In this document: positions 2,346-56,382 of the stretch, in pieces
Numbering within the stretch: position 1 is the first letter of the stretch
Layout of the letters: each line of letters begins with the position of its first letter
Source of the DNA: Paracoccaceae bacterium
Lineage (GTDB): Bacteria; Pseudomonadota; Alphaproteobacteria; Rhodobacterales; Rhodobacteraceae
NCBI GenBank assembly: GCA_963422275.1
Contig: OY729418.1
Location: 839,750-903,749, forward strand
Direction of reading: 5' to 3'
DNA: 64,000 bases
Notes under the pieces: model-generated
What the model saw: only the letters and a program-made list of their open reading frames with translations
Told to the model about the DNA's origin: nothing
Database searches by the model: none
Program-made: the position numbers and the translations under genes

Positions 2346-3305
2346 CTAGTCCCTCGCCTTCTGATGCTTGATGTAGAAGTAGGTTACGCACATCGACAGG
2401 GCTAGAACAACGATCGCGCTCGCCGACGCGAGCGAGAATTGATATTTGGAAAACGCGAGCTTGTAGGTGTACGTGCTCAGCATCTCCGTCGCATGAATCG
2501 GCCCGCCTCCTGTTGTCATCCAGACCAGCGGAAACACCTGCATCGTCCAAATGAAATCAAGAAGCGCGACGCTGATTATGATCGGGACCAGGTGCGGCAG
2601 CGTTATGTGCCAGAACTTTTCGAGTTCGTTGGCGCCGTCGATGCTGGCAGCTTCGTAAAGTTCTCCCGGAACGCCCTGAAGCCCGGCCAGAAGGCTCACC
2701 ATGAATAGCGGATAGCCTGCCCAGATGTTGACGAAAGTCAGCGCGTGAATCGCGGTGCTTGTCGATGCGAACCACTCAATGTTCCGGTCGGTGATGTTCA
2801 ATGCGGCGATTATGCTGTTGATCACTCCGCTCGGATCGAGCAGCAAGCGCCAGATGATCGCAATGATCACCGCCGTGAACAGCCACGGCATGATGTATAG
2901 AATCCGGAAAATGCTCCTGATCGCGGGATTGATCCGGCTCGAGTTCAGCAACACCGCGAAGAACAATCCAAGCAGGAAGTGAAACACGACGCTCATGATC
3001 GTGAAGTACAGGGTGTTGCGGACGGACTGCCAAAACACGTCATCCTGGAAAATGGTCTTGAAATTCTTGAGCCCCACGAATGAAGGGCTTGGCGTCATTA
3101 TTGCGCGGTCGAGGAGCGAATAACGGATCGCGACGATCATTGGAAAAAGCATCAGAACTGAAAAGAGGATAATCGACGGCGCGACGTAAGCGTACGGCGT
3201 CAGCAACCTGATGGTCTTGTAAGACAGCAACCTGGATCGAGGCGTTCTTCGAGAGTTCGTTCCGCCTTGCGCAACTGCAGGTTGCCTGTCCAAGAAGTTC
3301 AACAC
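2346..3305 (-). CDS. carbohydrate ABC transporter permease (MalF/UgpA-like)
   Basis: 319-aa multi-TM ORF with an EAA loop (YEAASIDGANELEKFWHITLP). Confidence 0.85.
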   Translation of the reverse strand: MLNFLDRQPAVAQGGTNSRRTPRSRLLSYKTIRLLTPYAYVAPSIILFSVLMLFPMIVAIRYSLLDRAIMTPSPSFVGLKNFKTIFQDDVFWQSVRNTLYFTIMSVVFHFLLGLFFAVLLNSSRINPAIRSIFRILYIMPWLFTAVIIAIIWRLLLDPSGVINSIIAALNITDRNIEWFASTSTAIHALTFVNIWAGYPLFMVSLLAGLQGVPGELYEAASIDGANELEKFWHITLPHLVPIIISVALLDFIWTMQVFPLVWMTTGGGPIHATEMLSTYTYKLAFSKYQFSLASASAIVVLALSMCVTYFYIKHQKARD

Positions 3306-3413
3306 TTCGCCATGTTTTCGGACGGGTCTGCTCCGCCAAGGTCCGGAATCGAATCAATTCCAATGCCGGGCGGGGTTAGATGCACCGCCCGACATTCGTT
3401 CGCTAGGATATGC

Positions 3414-4658
3414 CTAGAACTCGGCTTCCCACTTCTTCTGGGCCTTGGCCACCGCTTCTTCCACAGTCTGCTTGCCGTCGAGCATCAACTGGATTTCCTC
3501 GTCGAACATCCTCATCAACTCCTCCGCCACAGGAAGGCCGACGAATTCGTTCGCCAAGTATCCCGACTGGAATATCTCGAAGGCTTTTGCGAACAGCGAG
3601 TCGGAAGCCACGAAGTCCGGCTTGGCGTTCACGTTGCCGGGAAACGCATTGGCGATGGAAACGAGCTTGCTGTTGACTTCCTCGCTCATGAGGTAAGCCA
3701 CCAGCTTGAAGGCCTCCTCCTTGTGCTCGCTGTTTTCACTGACCCCAATGCCCCACGACGCATAAGGCAGGCCCCTGCGCCCGTCATAACCATCGACCGC
3801 CGGAAAGTCCGAAATCGTGAAATTCAGGTCTGGATTCCGTTCGCGGATCAAATTGATGTGCGCAAGCGTATCGACCATCATCGCGACCCGGCCGTTCACG
3901 AACTCCTCAACCTTGTCCTGCTCCTTCTTCGCGAAGGTGCCGGGGGATATCAGCCCCTCGTTGTACATGGACTGGATGAACTTCAGAGCGCTTGTCACGT
4001 CTTCGTTCTCCAAGTCGGGCTGACCATCCTTGAGCATGCTCTTGCCGGATGCCCAAACCCAGGACATCACATCGTTCTGGACGCCGTTCGGCGACTGGAG
4101 CGACAGCGGCAGGACCCAGCCGTACTGGTTCGCGGACTCGTCCGTCAGCTTTCTGGCCGCCTCATGGAACTCGCTCCTGTTCGTCGGAGGTGCGACCCCG
4201 GCCGCCTCCAGAAGATCAAGGTTCAGGAAAATCGGATAAATGAACGAAGCAACCGGGAACATGTAGCTGTTTCCGTTCAGCTTGATTATGGCTGCAACCT
4301 GACTGGCGTCGAAATCGGAAGCGGCCATCAAATCGTCGAGCGCGGCGATTGCCCCTTGCTTGGAAAGTCCGTTCACCCAAGCACCATCCAGACCCACGAC
4401 ATCGCTGAGCGTACCGCTTGCTGCCCCAACGACGATTTGATCACGGGTGCTGGAATAGGGTCCGCTGATCAGATTGACCTTGATCCCCGGGTTCGCGGCT
4501 TCGAAATCATCCATAATCCCACGGAACGAGCCTGCAGGCAGCTCCGGCTCCCACCATTGAATGAATTCGATCGTCGTTTGCGCCGACACTTTTACCATGC
4601 CGGAAACCGACACCAGCAATGACGACAACATTACCAATGCAACTTTCTTTATTTTCAT
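3414..4658 (-). CDS. extracellular solute-binding protein of a sugar ABC transporter
   Basis: 414-aa ORF with an N-terminal signal peptide (MKIKKVALVMLSSLLVSVSGMVKVSAQ). It is the first gene of the operon. The large plus-strand ORF 3267..4622 is antisense. Confidence 0.85.
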   Translation of the reverse strand: MKIKKVALVMLSSLLVSVSGMVKVSAQTTIEFIQWWEPELPAGSFRGIMDDFEAANPGIKVNLISGPYSSTRDQIVVGAASGTLSDVVGLDGAWVNGLSKQGAIAALDDLMAASDFDASQVAAIIKLNGNSYMFPVASFIYPIFLNLDLLEAAGVAPPTNRSEFHEAARKLTDESANQYGWVLPLSLQSPNGVQNDVMSWVWASGKSMLKDGQPDLENEDVTSALKFIQSMYNEGLISPGTFAKKEQDKVEEFVNGRVAMMVDTLAHINLIRERNPDLNFTISDFPAVDGYDGRRGLPYASWGIGVSENSEHKEEAFKLVAYLMSEEVNSKLVSIANAFPGNVNAKPDFVASDSLFAKAFEIFQSGYLANEFVGLPVAEELMRMFDEEIQLMLDGKQTVEEAVAKAQKKWEAEF

Positions 4659-8640: not shown

Positions 8641-9331
8641 GCCGAACGAGGGTTCTGCTGAAGGGATGCCACCATCATTTCGGCGCCGTCGTCGGCCAGG
8701 AACGAGAACAATGCGCACGGTCCGGAGATGCACCGGACGAAGAAGGGGAACCGGAGGCATTTCGGGATGAAGCTGCACGTCGTCACCAATCCCTGGGATC
8801 TGGTGCGCCCCACCTAGAGGGAACGGCCGCCAACGTCGCGACCTGACGCTCTCGGACCGGCTTCTGCACGGCGAGGGGAAACAAGTCCGCCCTGACGCCG
8901 GATATCGCTTGATCGGGAAGCGGGCGGAGCGCGCACATCGCGAGGTGGCATGGCACATTGCCATGGACCCCGGCGGGCAGCGCGGCTTCTCTGGCGGAGA
9001 CGGCGGAGGCCGGGGTGCAGCATCCGTTCCGGATCGCGAGGCAGGTGTTCGGATGACAAGGTTCGCTATCGAGGGCTGGAGAGGAACGCGCAGCGGTTTG
9101 CGCTGCTTCCGGGCTTCTCGAACCTGATGATTGCCCAGCCGCACCTGTCATGACAGGGGAGAGGAGAAGTGTGCCCGGAATCTGCCGGACCGGCCCTGCG
9201 GGGGCTGAAACGGCGGCGGTTCCGCCCCGAAAACGCGCATTAGGGGGTTTCTGGACTGCAGAAAACCGGTCGGCGGCCGGGAAGGGCAACTCCGCAGCCA
9301 CAGCCCTAAAAACCCCAAAATTAGAGGTTCC
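8641..9331 (+). mobile_element. 3' fragment of the same IS5-family 'type A' copy that starts at 6159
   Basis: It begins GCCGAACGAGGGTTCTGCTGAAGG, aligning to GCGGAGCAGGGGGTTTTGCTGAAG at 29379 of the reference copy. It ends ...TTAGAGGTTCC followed by CTAA. The translated frame is a degraded transposase C-terminal half. Confidence 0.8.
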
Positions 9332-47877: not shown

Positions 47878-48677
47878 TCCATTCCTCCTTGAATTACGCC
47901 GCAGCTCTGTTGATTAAAGTGCACGCGCCATTCACATGGGATGACAGGATATGCCCAAATCATGGCCCTTTCAAGTTTGACTGGCACCTTCATGATCGAT
48001 CGTTACAATACGCAACTCTCCGCGATGCCAAGGTGCCGTCTCCAAGTCGTCCGCCCGGCCAGTTTCCCGAGATTGCGCCGCTACCGAACATCGTCGACGA
48101 GACGATCAAGGGCACAAAGGAATCCTGGTCCGGGAACATTGAGAACATTGCAACTTGCTCCAGCTACGCTGTCATGTCGAAACGAATTCGGTGACAGCGG
48201 CCTGAATGGCAATGGCATTCACTTGACAATTTGGCGTCGATTCCTTCAGGAGCCACGCTTTTCCCTATGGGAAGTCCTGCCTTCCAGTTGTGAATCCAGC
48301 AGCACCGTGCTTTCGTCCGCACCCCTCTTGCTATATTCCCTGACCAGCTATGCGACCGTCTCGGGCAAAGCTCACGTCCGCCCGCTCCACAATCCAAGAT
48401 ATCGTCGCGCCAGTATCGAGCAACTGCTCTTGAAATCGGTCTGCAGTTTCTCGTCTCCGGCCGTCCGCAGCGCTTCCGGCGCTTGCCTTGAGATATTGCA
48501 CAACGCCGCGTTGCTCCGTCTCGCGTGATGCAGGTCGAACAGCTTTGCCAATTGGAAGCCGGACCCACCAATTGCTGAATGCCATTGGCCTGCAAGGGTG
48601 CCCGGCAGCACTGGCAGAGAATCGAGTGAACGGCGCAACAAAGAAGGTTGCGAAACGAACATCGATCATGGACAGAC

Positions 48678-49057
48678 GCACTGTCAGGCCTTGGAGTTTG
48701 TCTGACGTTCAGTTGGGAAAGCGCCGGATAGATTTCTTCATGGCGATGGTTGCCAGGCGCGTGGCCCCAAAAAATGCGCTTCGCAAGGTGAATGCCTGGT
48801 GTACTGGCCACGGCGGGCGTGAGTCATGGGTGCCGCGGCACCGAGACGGAACTGAACCTCAAGGTGGTGATTCTGACTCGCTCAAGGCCGCCGAAGCGGA
48901 TTGACCAAGCTCCAGCCTGAGCGCTGGAGTCTGTCCCGTGCGGGCAGAGCCTGCGTGCCTGAAACTGCGAACGCCCGCGCCAAACCATTTCCGGCGGAGC
49001 CAGAACTGGTTCCGAAAACCGCAAAAGCGCGCATCAGGCGGCTCTCGCAACGGTCTT
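48678..49057 (+). mobile_element. MITE-like internal-deletion derivative of the IS5-family 'type B' element
   Basis: The 5' part ..RRIDFFMAMVARRVAPKNALRKVNAW matches MDFFVMAAAERVDRNSALRKV of 21632. The 3' tail ..CTGGAGTCTGTCCC..CTGAAAC..CGCAACGGTCTT matches the tails at 22385 and 56030. Confidence 0.6.
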
Positions 49058-49185
49058 CAGCATTAAATTGTTTCAGCTAATTCGACAGTCACTCGCAAAT
49101 CAAGATCAGATACTGCTCCTTGCGCACCATGTGCGCTTGCACTAGAGTCAGCACCAAGATCCCAGCAGAACTTGTGCCTCGCAGA

Positions 49186-49515
49186 ATGCTAAACATGAGA
49201 GTGCCCCTGATTTTGACTTGCTTGGTTGCTGCCACTGCGAGTCCTGTAACGGCGGATTTGAAATCTTTCGGCGGAAAAGAGTTCGGCATTGTCCCTCGAC
49301 AAGGCATGATCGCGTGCGTTCCAGAAAGATCGGAAACTACCGCCTGCCCAAAGCAGCGATCATCGGAAGGTGACCGCAACGCACTTTCCGCAAAGGGGCG
49401 CTTGCCGCTCCGCGTTTCGGGCGTAGCCAAGATGGGAGTGAGCTATAACGGTGACAATTGGCATACAGTCCGCCAGTTCAACATCAGATTCCATTTTTCC
49501 GGAACGATCGACTGA
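49186..49515 (+). CDS. hypothetical small secreted protein
   Basis: Signal-peptide-like start (MLNMRVPLILTCLVAATASPVTA). There is no clear ribosome-binding site, and it sits between two mobile-element remnants. Confidence 0.3.
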   Translation: MLNMRVPLILTCLVAATASPVTADLKSFGGKEFGIVPRQGMIACVPERSETTACPKQRSSEGDRNALSAKGRLPLRVSGVAKMGVSYNGDNWHTVRQFNIRFHFSGTID

Positions 49516-49653
49516 TGGCTTCGCTTCGTTTACCCGCGGTTGGCGATTTCACTTGCAAAGCCCGTCTGCCGTGAATCGACTGCTGACAGTCCGGGCATCT
49601 CATGCCGTCGTCGGGTAGCCGCCGTGCATTCGAATGGGAATTATATACGGGTT

Positions 49654-50322
49654 CTAACCAAGCAGGTCTAGAAGCTGACTCCGAATCGGCTCGATCTTGA
49701 TCAACTCGGACAGCAGAAACTCCACGTTGTCGGGGCCGTCAGCACGACGCGTTTCGACAATTTCATCGTAGTCGATCTCCAGAAGTTCACAGAACTCGCG
49801 GCCGGTCATTGCCTCTTCGAAGGCGATCTTCCGTTTAAAGCCGTCCCATATCGCTTGCCGGCCACTCTGATTAAAGGCGCAGAAGTGCGCTTGGAACCGA
49901 TACTGGATGTGCGGTGCGGTGCGCTCGATGAACCCGTGCATAGCTTGGTGTTCCGCACTGGCCTTTTTGGTATCGAACACATGACCATCCTTCAGCTCGA
50001 CGATATGGCAGTTCTGCACGCCGCCGCGGCGCTTGAACACCATGAAGTCCGGTTCCGATCCGGCGAAGTCCAAGGTAGCACTATGCTTGATCTGACGTTT
50101 GCGGGCAAGCAACACGCCCTCGGGCATGATCTCCTGTTCGAGAAAAGCGTCTAGGTTTGGGATGTTCGGCACCAAGGCCGCGATCATCTTCTCCAGTTCC
50201 GACCCCGATGAGATCACGGCGGACTGTACCTTGCTGACAAGTTCGCCGAGTGCAGCGTTGCCAAACAGGCGTTCGTAGGAGCCTGATGTGTTCTTGGGTT
50301 TGGCGTCCCGAAGTCGAGCCAT
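49654..50322 (-). CDS. putative type II restriction endonuclease (PD-(D/E)xK)
   Basis: 222-aa ORF, 4 bp downstream of the methyltransferase gene. It has a candidate catalytic motif ..EPDFMVF..(17 aa)..VELKDG.. . Its stop codon abuts the left inverted repeat. Confidence 0.6.
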   Translation of the reverse strand: MARLRDAKPKNTSGSYERLFGNAALGELVSKVQSAVISSGSELEKMIAALVPNIPNLDAFLEQEIMPEGVLLARKRQIKHSATLDFAGSEPDFMVFKRRGGVQNCHIVELKDGHVFDTKKASAEHQAMHGFIERTAPHIQYRFQAHFCAFNQSGRQAIWDGFKRKIAFEEAMTGREFCELLEIDYDEIVETRRADGPDNVEFLLSELIKIEPIRSQLLDLLG

Positions 50323-50326
50323 GAGG

Positions 50327-51103
50327 TTAGCCGTTTAGGTCGCAGCCAAGGAAATTTCGTCGCTGTTTCTTCGCGGCCTGGAGCACGGAAAACGAGCCAG
50401 CCGCCGGATCGATTACGAAATCGCCCTCGTGGCTCACAGCGGCTATGAGTTCGCCTTGCAGGTCCACTGGCTTCGCGTGTGGATGGTCGCGTTGCGACAC
50501 CTGCTCCTTAATCACGTCCGGAATGTTGTGAACTTTCCAGACGCCTTTCGCCTTGCGCGGCTGCTTTTGCAGGACGACGCAGTATTCCGCCCGCCGACGG
50601 GTGCGGTAGCCCATGCCGAACGTGCCCTTGTCCCACGTCACCAAATCCACAATGTCGAGGCTCGTCCCGTCGAACCACGAGCGCACGCCTTGGCAAAGGT
50701 GGAACTTGTCCACCCACAGGAACAGATGGCCGGAGGGGATCAGGGCGCGGTTTATTTCGCGCACGAAGTTGCCGATCATGTTGTCGCCCATCTGCGCCAA
50801 GGCGCACCGGCGCTTGCCGCGACCCCTGCCTTCGTTCCCGTAAGACAGCTTTTCGAGGACGCCCCGATATTGCGGGTCGAGGAAAGCTACGGGAATGGCT
50901 TTGCTCGGTAGCATGGACAGGAAATCGAGTCCGTCCATTTCGAGCCGGGTGTTTCGCTTAAGCGCACTAGGCAACGGGAAGGGCGGCGTTTGAATGACTC
51001 TTTGGTCCGAGAACACCGCCGTCGTGTTGATAGGCTCTGCAAGCTGTTGGGCATGGCGTGGCACGGTGTTCCTCTCAACCGGCTGTGAGCGTCTTGTGGC
51101 CAA
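50327..51103 (-). CDS. beta-class N6-adenine/N4-cytosine DNA methyltransferase
   Basis: 258-aa ORF. Motif IV (FLDPQY) near the N-terminus and motif I (FVIDPAAGSFSV) near the C-terminus give the beta-class order. It overlaps the transposase 3' end by 29 bp. Confidence 0.85.
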   Translation of the reverse strand: MATRRSQPVERNTVPRHAQQLAEPINTTAVFSDQRVIQTPPFPLPSALKRNTRLEMDGLDFLSMLPSKAIPVAFLDPQYRGVLEKLSYGNEGRGRGKRRCALAQMGDNMIGNFVREINRALIPSGHLFLWVDKFHLCQGVRSWFDGTSLDIVDLVTWDKGTFGMGYRTRRRAEYCVVLQKQPRKAKGVWKVHNIPDVIKEQVSQRDHPHAKPVDLQGELIAAVSHEGDFVIDPAAGSFSVLQAAKKQRRNFLGCDLNG

Positions 51104-51995
51104 TTACGCCACGGGCGTCGCGCAAACTCTGGTCGATGCGGGCCTTGGCGTCGTAATTGCGCCGCTTGCGTCGAATGGCGAACTTGTCCGCATAGAGGCA
51201 CATTTGCTTCTCGGAGAAGTGATGAAAGGTAATCACGCAGTCTTGCTTCAGGAGCGTCCAGAGGGATTCGATCCCATTCATATGGGCCTTCTCGCGGCAA
51301 GCCTTGTGGTCGTCCAGGTAGATCATCGAACCAAGCTTGACCTCGGAAGGCACCGCACCTTGCAGGTGCGCTGCGCCTGTCCCGTCAATCGGATGAACCT
51401 CGATGCGCCCGGACCTGCGCTCGCGCATTCCAATGATCGGCTGCTTACCGAAGATTCCGTGCCCGGCTCGGAGCTTCTTCGAGGCATGCTTGTTCTTCTC
51501 ACACTCACCGATGTACGTCTCGTCAACATCGACTTCGCCGGCCATCGGACCGCTAGTGCCTGACTTGTTCAGCCACATCTCACGGATTTGCTGAGCCAGA
51601 TACCATGTGGTTCTCTGCGTGCACCCGAGACCGCGGGCCATTTGGCAACTTGAGATCGACTTCTTGGCAACGACCATGAGATAGACCGCGCAGAGATGCT
51701 TGCACGGCGACAGGTTAGCCAAATAAAACGCCGCCTGGTCGTGACGAAGAAGTGCTTGCGGCAATCCTTGCAGCGATAGATCTGTCGTTTCCCGTTCTTG
51801 ACCCGGCTGATCCGAACGCTTCCGCAATGCGGGCAGCAAGACTTGCCGCTCCATCGCATCCGCTTGATATGCTCCTGCGCATCCTTGTCTGTCGGGAATC
51901 GCGTTATAGAATCCCAAACGTTTATAATTTCGATCTTGCTGCGCTTCGCTATCTCCCATGGCTAGAAACATAGAGATATTAAACGCTAATGCCAA
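51075..51995 (-). pseudogene. IS1595-family transposase with two frameshifts
   Basis: The Zn-ribbon segment RWSGKSCCPHCGSVRISRVKNGKRQIYRCKDCRKHF lies in a different frame (ORF 51569..51859) from the flanking parts (..FYNAIPD.. and ..AAFYLANLSPCKHLCAVYLMVVAKKSISSCQMARGLG..VDVDETYIG..). Confidence 0.8.
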
Positions 51996-52084
51996 GAGAC
52001 ATAATTTCTTTTTGTTTCATAGTCTTAAGGGGTTTCTAACTTGAAACATACATAATTTCCATTCGAATAGTTGCGCTTTTGCCC

Positions 52085-53116
52085 CTAACCAAATGGAACA
52101 TCCAGCTTCTCATGCTGTTCAACGGCTGCCGCTCCAGTTTCAAGTGTCATGGCAGACTCATGAATTGATGTGTATTGACCGGCTGGACGGTAGCTATACA
52201 AGTATTCGTCAAGAATCGATTCAAGAGCGATCGGATCGATGCCGAAATCCGCGAATGTACCGTCTTCACCTCCCACAACATTGTCCTTGGCCAGTTGGCG
52301 AATTTGGTCAAGAGTCAAGATCTTGTTCTTTATGAGATCTCCGCTCACTGCTTGGCAAAAATCCAGAACCGCGGCCATGGGCCGAACGGCCCCAGCCGGA
52401 AGGCCAAGGACGATCCTGCGGCGCCGAACGATGCGCAGCATGAGGTGCACGAGTTCACGAAACGTCGCCATGTCCGGCCCCCCCAGTTCATAGATGCCGG
52501 GTTCAACCTCGCCGTTCACGGCACTGACGGCAGCGCGCGCCACATCATCTACATAGACGGGCTGGAATCGTGTTTCGGCTCCGACTAGCGGAATAACCAA
52601 GGAGCGACGCGCCATGCTTCCGAACCGGTTGAAGAACTGATCCTCAGCACCAAAAATGACGGATGGCCTCAATATAACCGCATTACTGAAAATTGAGCGT
52701 GCCGCGTCTTCGCCAGCAGCCTTGCTCCTAGCGTATGCACTCGGACTGTTCATGTCCGCACCAATAGCCGAAACATGGACAAGACTCTCGGCTCCCTCCT
52801 CAGCCGCCGCCGCCGCAATGTGCCCCGCTGCCTTGGAATGGACGGAATCAAACTTTTGGCGACGGGTTTCGGCAAGTATTCCAACACAGTTCACCACTGC
52901 ATCGGCGTTGCGGACGGATTCACGAACCGAACTCTCGTAGCGCACGTTTGCCAGAACGGGTTCAACCTGTCCTGGAACTCCGTAGGGGCGCACAAATATT
53001 GCCTCGTTCGGGTTGCGGACAGCCACGCGGACGCGTTCTCCGTCCTTTGCAAGCCTTCGAGCGATGTAGCGACCAAGAAATCCCGATCCGCCGAAAACCA
53101 CAACGATTCTGGACAA
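52085..53116 (-). CDS. NAD(P)-binding epimerase/dehydratase-fold protein, complex I NDUFA9-like
   Basis: Rossmann motif VVVFGGSGFLG. The likely TTG start at 53116 follows GGAGG. The tracked ATG at 53248 adds an implausible 44-aa leader. Confidence 0.75.
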   Translation of the reverse strand: MSRIVVVFGGSGFLGRYIARRLAKDGERVRVAVRNPNEAIFVRPYGVPGQVEPVLANVRYESSVRESVRNADAVVNCVGILAETRRQKFDSVHSKAAGHIAAAAAEEGAESLVHVSAIGADMNSPSAYARSKAAGEDAARSIFSNAVILRPSVIFGAEDQFFNRFGSMARRSLVIPLVGAETRFQPVYVDDVARAAVSAVNGEVEPGIYELGGPDMATFRELVHLMLRIVRRRRIVLGLPAGAVRPMAAVLDFCQAVSGDLIKNKILTLDQIRQLAKDNVVGGEDGTFADFGIDPIALESILDEYLYSYRPAGQYTSIHESAMTLETGAAAVEQHEKLDVPFG

Positions 53117-53326: not shown

Positions 53327-53413
53327 GCCCAGATGGCGGAATTGGTAGACGCGCTAGCTTCAGGTGCTAGTGCCTGTATGGGCGTGGAGGTTCGAGTCCT
53401 CTTCTGGGCACCA
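53327..53413 (+). tRNA. tRNA-Leu (anticodon CAG)
   Basis: Folded by hand. The acceptor stem is GCCCAGA/TCTGGGC. The D-arm contains AATTGGTAGA. The anticodon stem is CTAGC/GCTAG with loop TTCAGGT. The variable arm is 15 nt, the T-arm is GGAGG-TTCGAGT-CCTCT, and the CCA end is encoded. Confidence 0.95.
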
Positions 53414-54619: not shown

Positions 54620-55140
54620 GGGAGAGATCGATGGATTTCTTCATGACCGTGGTGGATGAGCGCGGCAAGCAGATTTCCACCCACCTGTACGGTCAGGAAA
54701 TCATCACCGAGACCTTGTACCATCTGCAAGGCCGACCTTCTGCTGAAGGGCGAAGGCGAGGTTGCCGACAACATCGTGGGCGAACCGGAACATTCCACGC
54801 TTGCCAACGACGCCTTCCCGTCCCGCAAGTTCGACTTCATGCTGTCCAACCCGCCTTGCGGAAAGACCTGGAAGGCCGATCTGGAGCGAATGGACGGCAA
54901 GAAGGGCATACGCGACCCGCGTTTCCTGATCGAGTATGGGGGTGACCTAGACTTCTCTCTGGTCACACGATCCAGCGACGGACAGATGTTGTTTCTCGCC
55001 AACATGCTCTCGAAGATGAAGCAGGACACCAAACTCGGCAACCGCATCGCCGAGGTCCACAACGGAAGCTCGCTGTTCACCGGCGATGCTGGCCAAGGGG
55101 AGAGCAACATCCGCCGCTGGATCATCGAGAGCGACTGGCC
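54620..55140 (+). pseudogene. hsdM: internal fragment of a type I R-M N6-adenine methyltransferase (HsdM-like)
   Basis: Two frames read ..LYGQEIITETLY.. then ..ICKADLLLKGEGEVADNI..FDFMLSNPPCGKTWKADLERM..SLVTRSSDGQMLFLANMLSKMK..SLFTGDAGQGESNIRRWIIESDW. It is cut on the right by the IS427-like copy. Motif IV reads NPPC instead of NPP(Y/F). Confidence 0.7.
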
Positions 55141-55141
55141 A

Positions 55142-55947
55142 GGTCGTGGACTCATTGATTTTGATCCAGAGGCGGATGCAGGCAAGGGCGATTGCGGCGA
55201 GGAAGTTTCTTGCGAGCTTGTGATGGCGGGTCGCGATGCCTCGGAAGTGCTTGAGCTTGTTGAAGAAGCGTTCGACGAGGTTGCGCTGGCGGTACAGGTG
55301 ATCGGGCACCGAGCGCTGCTCCCGGCGGTCCCGTTGGGTCGGGATGTGGGGGCAAGAGCCATGGTCAGCGACGGTGTCCCGGGCCGGCTCAAGGCCGTCA
55401 AGGAGGGCCGGCACGGCAGCCTTGTCGGAGGCTTGGCCCGGAGTGAGCACGAAGCGGCGCGGCAGGCCAAGGCCGTCGACGACGACGTGGATTTTGGTGC
55501 TCAACCCGCCTCGCGAGCGTCCGATGGCGTGATCCGGACCCCCTTTTTTCCGCCCGCGGCGTGCTGGTGGGCGCACACCACCGAGGCGTCGAGGAAATGA
55601 AGAGACCCCGGCGAGCCCGTCGCCAGCGCCCCGAACAGGCGCTCCCGCACCCCTTGCCTGGCCCCGCGGTTGCAGCGGTTGCAGACTGTCGCATGCGGCC
55701 CGCAGCGTTCCGGAAGGTCGCGCCACGGCGTGCCGGTGCGCAGGATGTGAAAGATCCCGCTGATCGCCCGCCGGTCGTCCACCCGTGGAACGCCCCGCGG
55801 CTTGTCAGGCGGCAACGGCGAGATGATCGCCCATTCCGCATCCGTCAGATCGTGCCGTCCCTGCATCCTCAATCTCCCACTGTTTGGAAGCTTGAATCAC
55901 ATCAGAGCCGGAAAGAAAATCCCTTTTCCCTTTATGAGTACAGGACC
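55142..55947 (-). mobile_element. IS427-group element, copy 3 (most complete; two overlapping ORFs with A-AAA-AAG slippery site)
   Basis: orfA is 55501..55872 and orfB is the in-IS part of 54947..55726. GGAAAAAAGGGGG on the minus strand (55541-55553) gives ..AGGKKG (frame 0) or ..KKGGPDHAIGRSRGG (frame -1). Ends are GGTCGTGGACTCAT / ATGAGTACAGGACC. Confidence 0.85.
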
Positions 55948-56382
55948 TGGCCGTGGAGACGGAAACGGCACTGAAGGCAATGGCGCTTGACCTGCTCAAG
56001 GCGGCCAGCCGGATCGAGCTTGCTGTGACCTGAGAGCCGGAGTCTGTCTGGAACTTGCCCGATGCGGTGCATCGGGGGCTGAAACCGCGCCTTTGGGCGC
56101 CAAGGTCGCTACCGGAAGGCACTGCAGCCACCGCCAAGCGCGCAATTAGCTCCAGACGGCGAAATGCGGAGAAAAGCGCCCGCTTCCGCAACAGTTTTGT
56201 CTTCAAATTAAAGTTCCTGCACGAGTCTCTTGCCTTGCTGGAACATGCCGGAGCGAATGAAAAAGGCGGTGATGACAAGGTGCAACTTCAACATTTGCAA
56301 TTGCGGAAAGCGCAATGGCGGATTATTGTCTGGAAATCAAAACAAGAACAAACGTCATAGGCAGTGAGGCAGTTTCGGGACA

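Follow-up and report, generated by a model that had tools for sequence, protein, structure and literature searches.

A probable immobilised IS1595-family transporter insertion sequence carrying a Type II restriction-modification operon in a Paracoccaceae bacterium, and its mobile relatives

We analyzed a window of 64,000 nt of contig OY729418.1 (GCA_963422275.1, Paracoccaceae bacterium; forward-strand positions 839,750–903,749) and, in particular, three co-directional minus-strand open reading frames (ORFs) found within the examined bases 49400–52400 of this window, at 49654–50322, 50327–51103 and 51075–51995. A preliminary description of this DNA had placed the ORFs at these positions and interpreted them as a Type II restriction-modification (R-M) pair carried as cargo by an IS1595-family insertion sequence (IS) with a decayed transposase. 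Both the ORFs and this interpretation were borne out: the genes lie in a single transposable unit of 2425 bp (49636–52060), which encodes a transposase (tnp), a methyltransferase (M) and a candidate restriction endonuclease (R) on its minus strand, and other genomes hold the tnp-M-R unit, bounded by the same termini, at many unrelated sites.

The unit is bounded by short terminal inverted repeats (IRs). That of the nuclease end lies at 49636–49654 on the plus strand (GGGAATTATATACGGGTTC) and pairs with that of the transposase end at 52042–52060, which is degenerate and reads GGAAATTATGTATGTTTCA on the minus strand. Directly outside, a perfect 8-bp direct repeat, ATTCGAAT, occupies 49628–49635 and 52061–52068, so that the true element ends begin GGGAATTAT. 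The inverted repeat reported earlier is real, since the 20-nt arms 49628–49647 and 52049–52068 match at 18 of 20 positions, and its 17-nt core occurs twice in the window, once in each arm, against 0.02 occurrences expected. Its outer 8 nt, however, are the target-site duplication, which the preliminary description had not been able to find, and the 10 identical outer nucleotides noted there comprise these 8 nt plus GG. As ATTCGAAT is identical to its own reverse complement, this outer part of the inverted repeat simultaneously reads as a perfect 8-bp direct repeat, and we assign it to the duplication because related copies show unrelated 8-bp direct repeats at exactly that position. A palindromic target duplication can thus mimic an additional inverted repeat, which explains this annotation trap.

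With regard to the family terminus GGGAATTATATAC, the nuclease-side IR showed 0 mismatches over the first 13 nt, and the transposase-side IR 3 mismatches. The stop codon of R (49654–49656) does not merely touch the left repeat, as had been proposed, but falls inside it, and the spacers between tnp and M and between M and R measure only 10 and 4 nt, respectively; with this arrangement, an IS end could not be accommodated between tnp and its cargo. In line with this, the repeated unit always terminated just past the nuclease gene. The 8-bp target duplication and the short terminal IRs are both properties of the IS1595 family. Relative to a complex-I NDUFA9-like gene, the insertion point lies 17 bp downstream.

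The methyltransferase gene (50327–51064, minus strand) is intact and encodes a beta-class DNA amino-methyltransferase of 245 aa, as judged by its matches to Pfam N6_N4_Mtase (PF01555) and to the PADLOC profile MTase_II PDLC03271 (E=2e-84) and by its motif order. An alternative TTG start at 51103 would give a 258-aa ORF; however, the GTG start at 51064 is supported by homologs and by a 100%-identical 245-aa database protein (P0121), and it sits 10 nt past the tnp stop (51075–51077), so that M does not overlap the 3' end of tnp as formerly described. In alignments, a DPQY motif close to the N terminus corresponds to DPPY of M.MboIIA, and the motif I region, close to the C terminus, corresponds to those of MboIIA, RsrI and CcrM. 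In the 258-aa ORF, motif IV lies at residues ~76–79 and motif I at ~233–244, in the beta-class order of motif IV, target-recognition region and motif I. From the aspartate at the first motif position, M probably methylates N6-adenine. We also observed that M starts with GTG and not ATG, and that 6 residues (ATDTLT-like) are missing from its variable N-terminal region compared to the sister strain described below and to most 251-aa homologs.

The candidate Type II restriction endonuclease of 222 aa is encoded by an intact ORF (49654–50322, minus strand). No match was obtained with this protein in sequence searches of Pfam, NCBIfam and PDB, and none of its 797 database homologs carries a name; the PADLOC profile, a fold search and tblastn against plasmids were informative. 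R matched the REBASE-derived Type II profile REase_II PDLC03487 of PADLOC from end to end (E=2.2e-41). The PADLOC profiles have lengths of 227 and 228. The AlphaFold model, with a predicted local distance difference test (pLDDT) score of 89, resembled EcoO109I best in the PDB (Foldseek probability 0.96), with a low TM-score; further neighbours were N.BspD6I, FokI, PaqCI, cap-snatching nucleases and Cap4, all of them PD-(D/E)xK folds with low TM-scores. The PD-ExK signature recognised earlier was confirmed, as residues E42, E90-P91-D92 and E109-L-K111 are invariant, even in a 35%-identical Campylobacter homolog. The profile match and the restriction-endonuclease-like fold support the identification of this protein as a restriction enzyme.

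M and R were adjacent, as expected of a linked endonuclease in a Type II R-M system, in ~75 of the 80 loci returned by a genome scan with one genome per species (loci cited by L numbers, element ends located by script). An analysis of the avoidance of palindromes and degenerate palindromes across 8 diverged elements revealed no absent motif, and the depletion of GANTC (38 observed vs 85 expected) was too mild to be taken as specific. At three loci (L027, L049 and L087), the R ORF looks intact, but the neighbouring M gene is missing or has been cut down to 27 or 97 codons; an R of this kind would be lethal unless a same-specificity methylase were encoded elsewhere in the genome.

The transposase gene (51075–51952, minus strand) is a pseudogene of the IS1595 family, the lesions of which were located by DNA alignment to the intact 311-aa transposases of L003, L032 and L035. 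The ORF at 51075–51995 matched Pfam DDE_Tnp_IS1595, as had been expected, in two fragments, the first covering profile positions 2–87; the DDE matches (PF12762, 1.1e-17; NCBIfam NF033547, 3.9e-27) were both partial. The zinc ribbon (Zn_ribbon_IS1595, PF12760, 3.2e-07), at 51569–51859, is out of frame with the DDE part. In the intact relatives it is in frame, and these proteins showed the full Zn_ribbon_IS1595 together with a full-length DDE_Tnp_IS1595 match (2–153 of 153). The earlier proposal of a dead transposase therefore stands, but not its cause: instead of two frameshifts, we found a single 1-nt deletion (between 51734 and 51733), which throws the zinc ribbon and DDE parts into different frames, loss of the start codon (ATG>ATA, 51952–51950) and the in-frame loss of 57 nt (between 51293 and 51292), which takes out conserved sequence lying between the second D and the E. 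A programmed frameshift was rejected, since the intact relatives encode a single continuous ORF. With tnp and one terminal repeat decayed, the window unit is no longer self-mobile, and it lacks the functional transposase of an autonomous element; it is a relic in which, as first described, M and R are both still open.

A sigma-70-like promoter candidate (TTGGCA-17-TATGTT; 51967–51995, minus strand), identified by consensus scan and conservation, lies upstream of tnp. Its −35 and −10 hexamers and the TTTCTAGCCATGG that follows them just upstream of the tnp start (51953–51995) are strongly conserved in L003, L032 and L035. This candidate is the probable promoter of the tnp-M-R operon, as far as its sequence indicates. 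The conserved stretch as a whole, including TTTCTAGCCATGG, may be the operon promoter or a regulatory site.

In the homologous loci, the same tnp-M-R trio was found at unrelated chromosomal sites. The L003 unit, with ends GGGACTTGTATAC... and GGGACTTACATAC..., is flanked on both sides by CAATGAAG, a perfect 8-bp duplication, and equally perfect 8-bp duplications flank the independent insertions L030 (TTACGAAA), L031 (TTTTTTTA), L032 (CTTTTTTA), L035 (TTCAAAAA), L037 (CAAATTTA), L045 (TTTTTTCG) and L085 (TAAAGTTT). The same holds for ~10 copies in Ruegeria, which brings the number of insertions besides that of the window to ~18 in total; the duplications of the independent insertions are 62–100% A+T. 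Furthermore, in-silico excision of the unit together with one duplication copy in L003 and L035 restored uninterrupted 252-aa host ORFs, which yields a precise in-silico empty site for each. Both of these insertions (L003 2924–6197; L035 2125–5434) lie inside resident homologous methylase genes without a nuclease partner, at different codons. Two insertions into so small a target look non-random; possible reasons are that older copies were hit by nested insertion or that R-M systems of the same specificity compete.

The largest set of copies was observed in the Ruegeria sp. metagenome-assembled genome NZ_CBDAQX01, which contains at least 19 copies at 19 distinct loci on 10 contigs (L011–L025, L051–L053, L068 and L084). 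Here the unit measures 2748 bp, with perfect 26-bp IRs (GGGAATTATATACTTAAGTAACATTT) and unique flanks, and the 12 uninterrupted full-length copies that were compared differ by 0–1 nt. Among the 19 loci, the 341-aa tnp is intact in 15, M in all 19 and R in 17. The passengers inside the IRs thus move together with the transposase, which is the defining feature of a transporter insertion sequence (tIS). Most of these copies are bounded by perfect 8-bp duplications. In some of them flanks are swapped, suggesting recombination between copies, a few copies are interrupted by other insertions, and the unit has an additional ORF of ~58 aa after the nuclease gene.

Comparison of the Ruegeria element (L013) with the L003-type elements (L003, L032 and L035) revealed that the transposases are only 47% identical, whereas M and R share 83 and 81% identity, respectively, and that the termini agree fully or almost fully over their first 13 nt. 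The higher identity of the R-M genes suggests exchange of R-M modules between IS backbones. Loss of the transposase with retention of the R-M genes is common among the relatives (L001/L010, L002/L014, L037 and L082), and several tnp-less loci retain a recognisable nuclease-side IR. Hosts of the IS-bearing form belong to the Alphaproteobacteria, Gammaproteobacteria, Spirochaetota and Chloroflexota, and the R-M pair alone occurs in Poribacteria and others; record names (Poribacteria, Poriferihabitaceae, Spongia_Bin9, 'cymbastelae') suggest that many hosts are sponge symbionts. No relatives of the element were found in the IMG/VR viral contigs. A possible passenger-carrying relative was observed in L090 (Methylocystis rosea plasmid pGW6_1), where an annotated IS1595-family transposase (~2890–3876), 43% identical to that of Ruegeria, has a similar terminus (GGGGACATATATAC) in front of it and small hypothetical genes after it; no partner IR for this terminus was found within 3 kb.

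The fate of the cargo could be followed in a sister strain, in which positions 9100–12900 of contig L091 (ena ERZ21742408 ctg5722l) are orthologous to window positions 49628–52126. The flanks are 97–98.6% identical to those of the window and the IR-duplication-flank junction is identical, which indicates that the insertion is ancestral to both strains and predates their split. In the sister strain, a 545-bp deletion joins the 3' end of the NDUFA9-like gene to the interior of tnp, and R is dead, having acquired a premature stop at codon 3 and a 1.9-kb insertion and having lost 83 bp; M is intact (251 aa). Polarised by outgroups, 5 derived amino-acid changes have accumulated since the split in R of the window lineage, compared to ~16–19 in the dead R of the sister, and M has acquired 5 in the window and 9 in the sister. 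By these counts, R has stayed constrained in the window lineage. That the sister lost R and kept M shows that 'addiction' does not keep R indefinitely, and it partly weakens the part of the preliminary description that invoked post-segregational selection; loss of R with persistence of M is the classical, expected escape route from an R-M system.

Taken together, we interpret the unit at 49636–52060 as an immobilised IS1595-family tIS carrying a two-gene Type II R-M operon inside its terminal IRs, a reading to which we assign a probability of roughly 0.9. Several points weigh against it. A reconstructed empty site was not found by an exact 22-nt scan of metagenome contigs, and the sole close relative (L091) is already occupied by the insertion. 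Distant homologs of the R-M genes (in Poribacteria, Dehalococcoidia and on Campylobacter plasmids) are accompanied neither by a transposase nor by a recognisable IR, so the R-M pair exists outside the IS too. R and M are predicted to be functional in the window copy from their intact ORFs and conservation. The ratios of nonsynonymous to synonymous substitution rates (dN/dS) are rough, with dS saturated (>1) in most comparisons. They amount to 0.10–0.14 for M of the window against relatives with intact tnp (up to 0.18 against tnp-less ones), 0.04–0.13 for R of the window against relatives, 0.11–0.29 (mostly 0.21–0.29) for the repaired window tnp against relatives and 0.07–0.11 for the transposases of intact relatives among themselves. 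The promoter scan returned 2 consensus matches in the region against 1.5 expected by chance, and the support for the candidate comes from its conservation across elements. Finally, the assignment to the ISNwi1 subgroup is tentative and is based on an end consensus (ggnnatTAT) and a DDE-K motif associated with this subgroup in the ISfinder literature.

Among the alternatives, it might be argued that the cargo is itself a relic, with M an orphan methyltransferase and R an open but silent or inactive ORF, so that no working R-M system is present. The loss of R and retention of M in the sister strain fits this, as do the orphan-M end states seen elsewhere in the family (the outer M genes of L003 and L035, for example), the promoter at the transposase end being a candidate by consensus match, and the 6-aa N-terminal deletion in the window M. 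However, R of the window retains every family-invariant residue, and its 5 derived changes since the split equal those of the window M and contrast with the ~16–19 of the sister pseudogene, which makes a relic cargo unlikely.

It is highly improbable that the 222-aa PD-ExK protein is a TnsA-like transposition accessory nuclease and that the methylase regulates transposition. TnsA of Tn7 does have a restriction-endonuclease fold, as is generally known, and the R stop codon does lie within the terminal repeat; yet M and R are conserved as a tight pair without a transposase across phyla and on plasmids, R matches a Type II endonuclease profile over its full length, the fold search gave no TnsA-like match, and IS1595 relatives are generally known to transpose without such a gene. 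The accessory role was rejected on these grounds. That an ordinary IS1595-family IS lies by chance beside a resident R-M pair, the repeat past the nuclease being fortuitous, is barely conceivable: in many genomes, and on Campylobacter plasmids, the pair does occur with no transposase, but the terminus past the nuclease agrees with the family terminus at 13 of 13 positions, the 8-bp duplication encloses all three genes, tnp and M are merely 10 nt apart, and the same unit, with new duplications, is found at >20 unrelated sites, and its excision restores host ORFs in two genomes.

As the relatives show, the Zn-ribbon/DDE transposase of the active form mobilises the entire tnp-M-R unit, targets A+T-rich 8-mers and duplicates 8 bp. 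In the tIS interpretation, a single promoter in the transposase-proximal end would transcribe tnp, M and R as an operon. M would protect host sites and R would cut unmodified DNA, and with these roles the cargo would give defence and possibly stabilise the element. In the window, insertion downstream of the NDUFA9-like gene duplicated ATTCGAAT before the split from the sister strain; tnp and one terminal repeat have since decayed, and M and R have stayed open and conserved. A promoter at the tnp end would explain why a dead tnp remains a useful leader.

By its termini (GGGAATTAT and GGAAATTAT) and its catalytic motif (NGIESLWxLLK, with K at +7 after E), the element probably belongs to an ISNwi1-like subgroup. 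The ISNwi1 subgroup of Siguier, Gagnevin and Chandler (2009; ISfinder) is said to include passenger-carrying members, 'ISNwi1+'. The subgroup would share with the present family a single ORF with zinc ribbon and DDE domain (~310 aa in the intact relatives found here), an 8-bp duplication, short IRs starting GGnnATTAT, a D-D-E triad with K seven residues past E, and passengers located between the transposase and one IR. Set beside this subgroup, the family would differ in carrying an entire Type II R-M operon, and the window copy differs in being a pseudo-element.

The tIS category has been recognised for the IS1595 and IS66 families (bioRxiv 10.1101/2021.05.26.445724), and IS1595-family tIS have been described with ~25-bp IRs and 8-bp direct repeats (PMC5704250). 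Among these, tISCpe8 and MTnSag1 likewise carry an IS1595-type transposase and cargo inside ~25-bp IRs with 8-bp direct repeats, but their cargo is a lincosamide (antibiotic) resistance gene and a mobilisation function, their hosts are Firmicutes and their transposases belong to another lineage (PMC5704250). R-M units bounded by IRs and an 8-bp duplication were reported by Furuta, Abe and Kobayashi (2010), namely a unit with a 65-bp IR in X. oryzae and one with a 26-bp IR and a degenerate COG3677 transposase in N. gonorrhoeae; the same authors cite the IS1595 family paper for IS-associated R-M or M genes (PMC2853133). These units resemble the present one in having R-M genes within imperfect IRs and an 8-bp duplication and, in Neisseria, a decayed transposase inside. 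They differ in being single relic copies of other R-M types with no active relative identified, whereas the family described here includes intact transposases and a multi-copy burst. Thus, both IS1595 elements with passengers and IR-bounded R-M units with 8-bp duplications are already known. No description of the present tnp-M-R family was found in the full-text literature searched, a coverage outside which the primary IS1595 family description lies.

Homologous cargo is also found in another setting, as conjugative plasmids of Campylobacter coli/jejuni carry M followed by R (WP_002784932.1, 'DNA methyltransferase', and WP_200408904.1, 'restriction endonuclease'; NZ_CP027635.1). At 35% identity across 98% of its length, the plasmid-borne R has kept all catalytic residues; unlike the present unit, however, the pair has no transposase or IRs and is carried by the conjugative plasmid. 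EcoO109I (PDB 1WTD) and other PD-(D/E)xK Type II enzymes share the overall restriction-endonuclease fold of R, but the 12% identity and TM-score of ~0.4 to EcoO109I denote a fold-level resemblance and not family membership.

R-M systems have long been argued to be selfish mobile elements, but few natural examples possess a working transposase of their own. The window copy itself is a relic of an ordinary sort; what makes the family interesting is its active relatives, in which a whole R-M operon demonstrably transposes. Within the family, a decay series leads from the active tIS to a dead tnp with live R-M genes, as in the window, and on to an orphan methylase, as in the sister strain. We further propose, tentatively and with some doubt, that the family might represent a lineage, active at present and not described before, of R-M systems that transpose by themselves, one that spans several phyla, bursts to ~20 identical intact R-M copies in one genome, exchanges modules and hits orphan methylases. 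If this were true, the family would be a naturally occurring case in which R-M systems demonstrably spread as autonomous transposons. It would also offer a vehicle for the known enrichment of sponge microbiomes in R-M systems, which two reports describe along with an enrichment in transposases (PMC11410982; PMC5099237). The L003-type and Ruegeria-type elements provide concrete material for transposition and methylome experiments.

With regard to the surroundings of the element, a gap of 1.75 kb (47880–49627) separates it from a dioxygenase/GST-fusion gene and is ~97% conserved in the sister strain. This gap contains no convincing ORF, and the ORFs in it gave no match in Pfam. Rfam yielded nothing even at E≤1, and neither tandem repeats nor similarity to plasmids were found. 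A tRNA-Leu(CAG) gene (53327–53413) is found at a distance of 1.26 kb, separated from the element by the NDUFA9-like gene; this tRNA gene is not the insertion site, and nothing points to a tRNA-targeted island. Finally, a further IS of ~816 bp was observed in the window at 55137–55952, with 19-nt terminal inverted repeats (GGCCAGGTCGTGGACTCAT / ATGAGTACAGGACCTGGCC), matches to IS4/IS5-type DDE_Tnp_1 and DUF4096 and a very high local G+C (up to 0.71); fragments of a second copy of this IS form part of the 1.9-kb insertion in the R gene of the sister strain.

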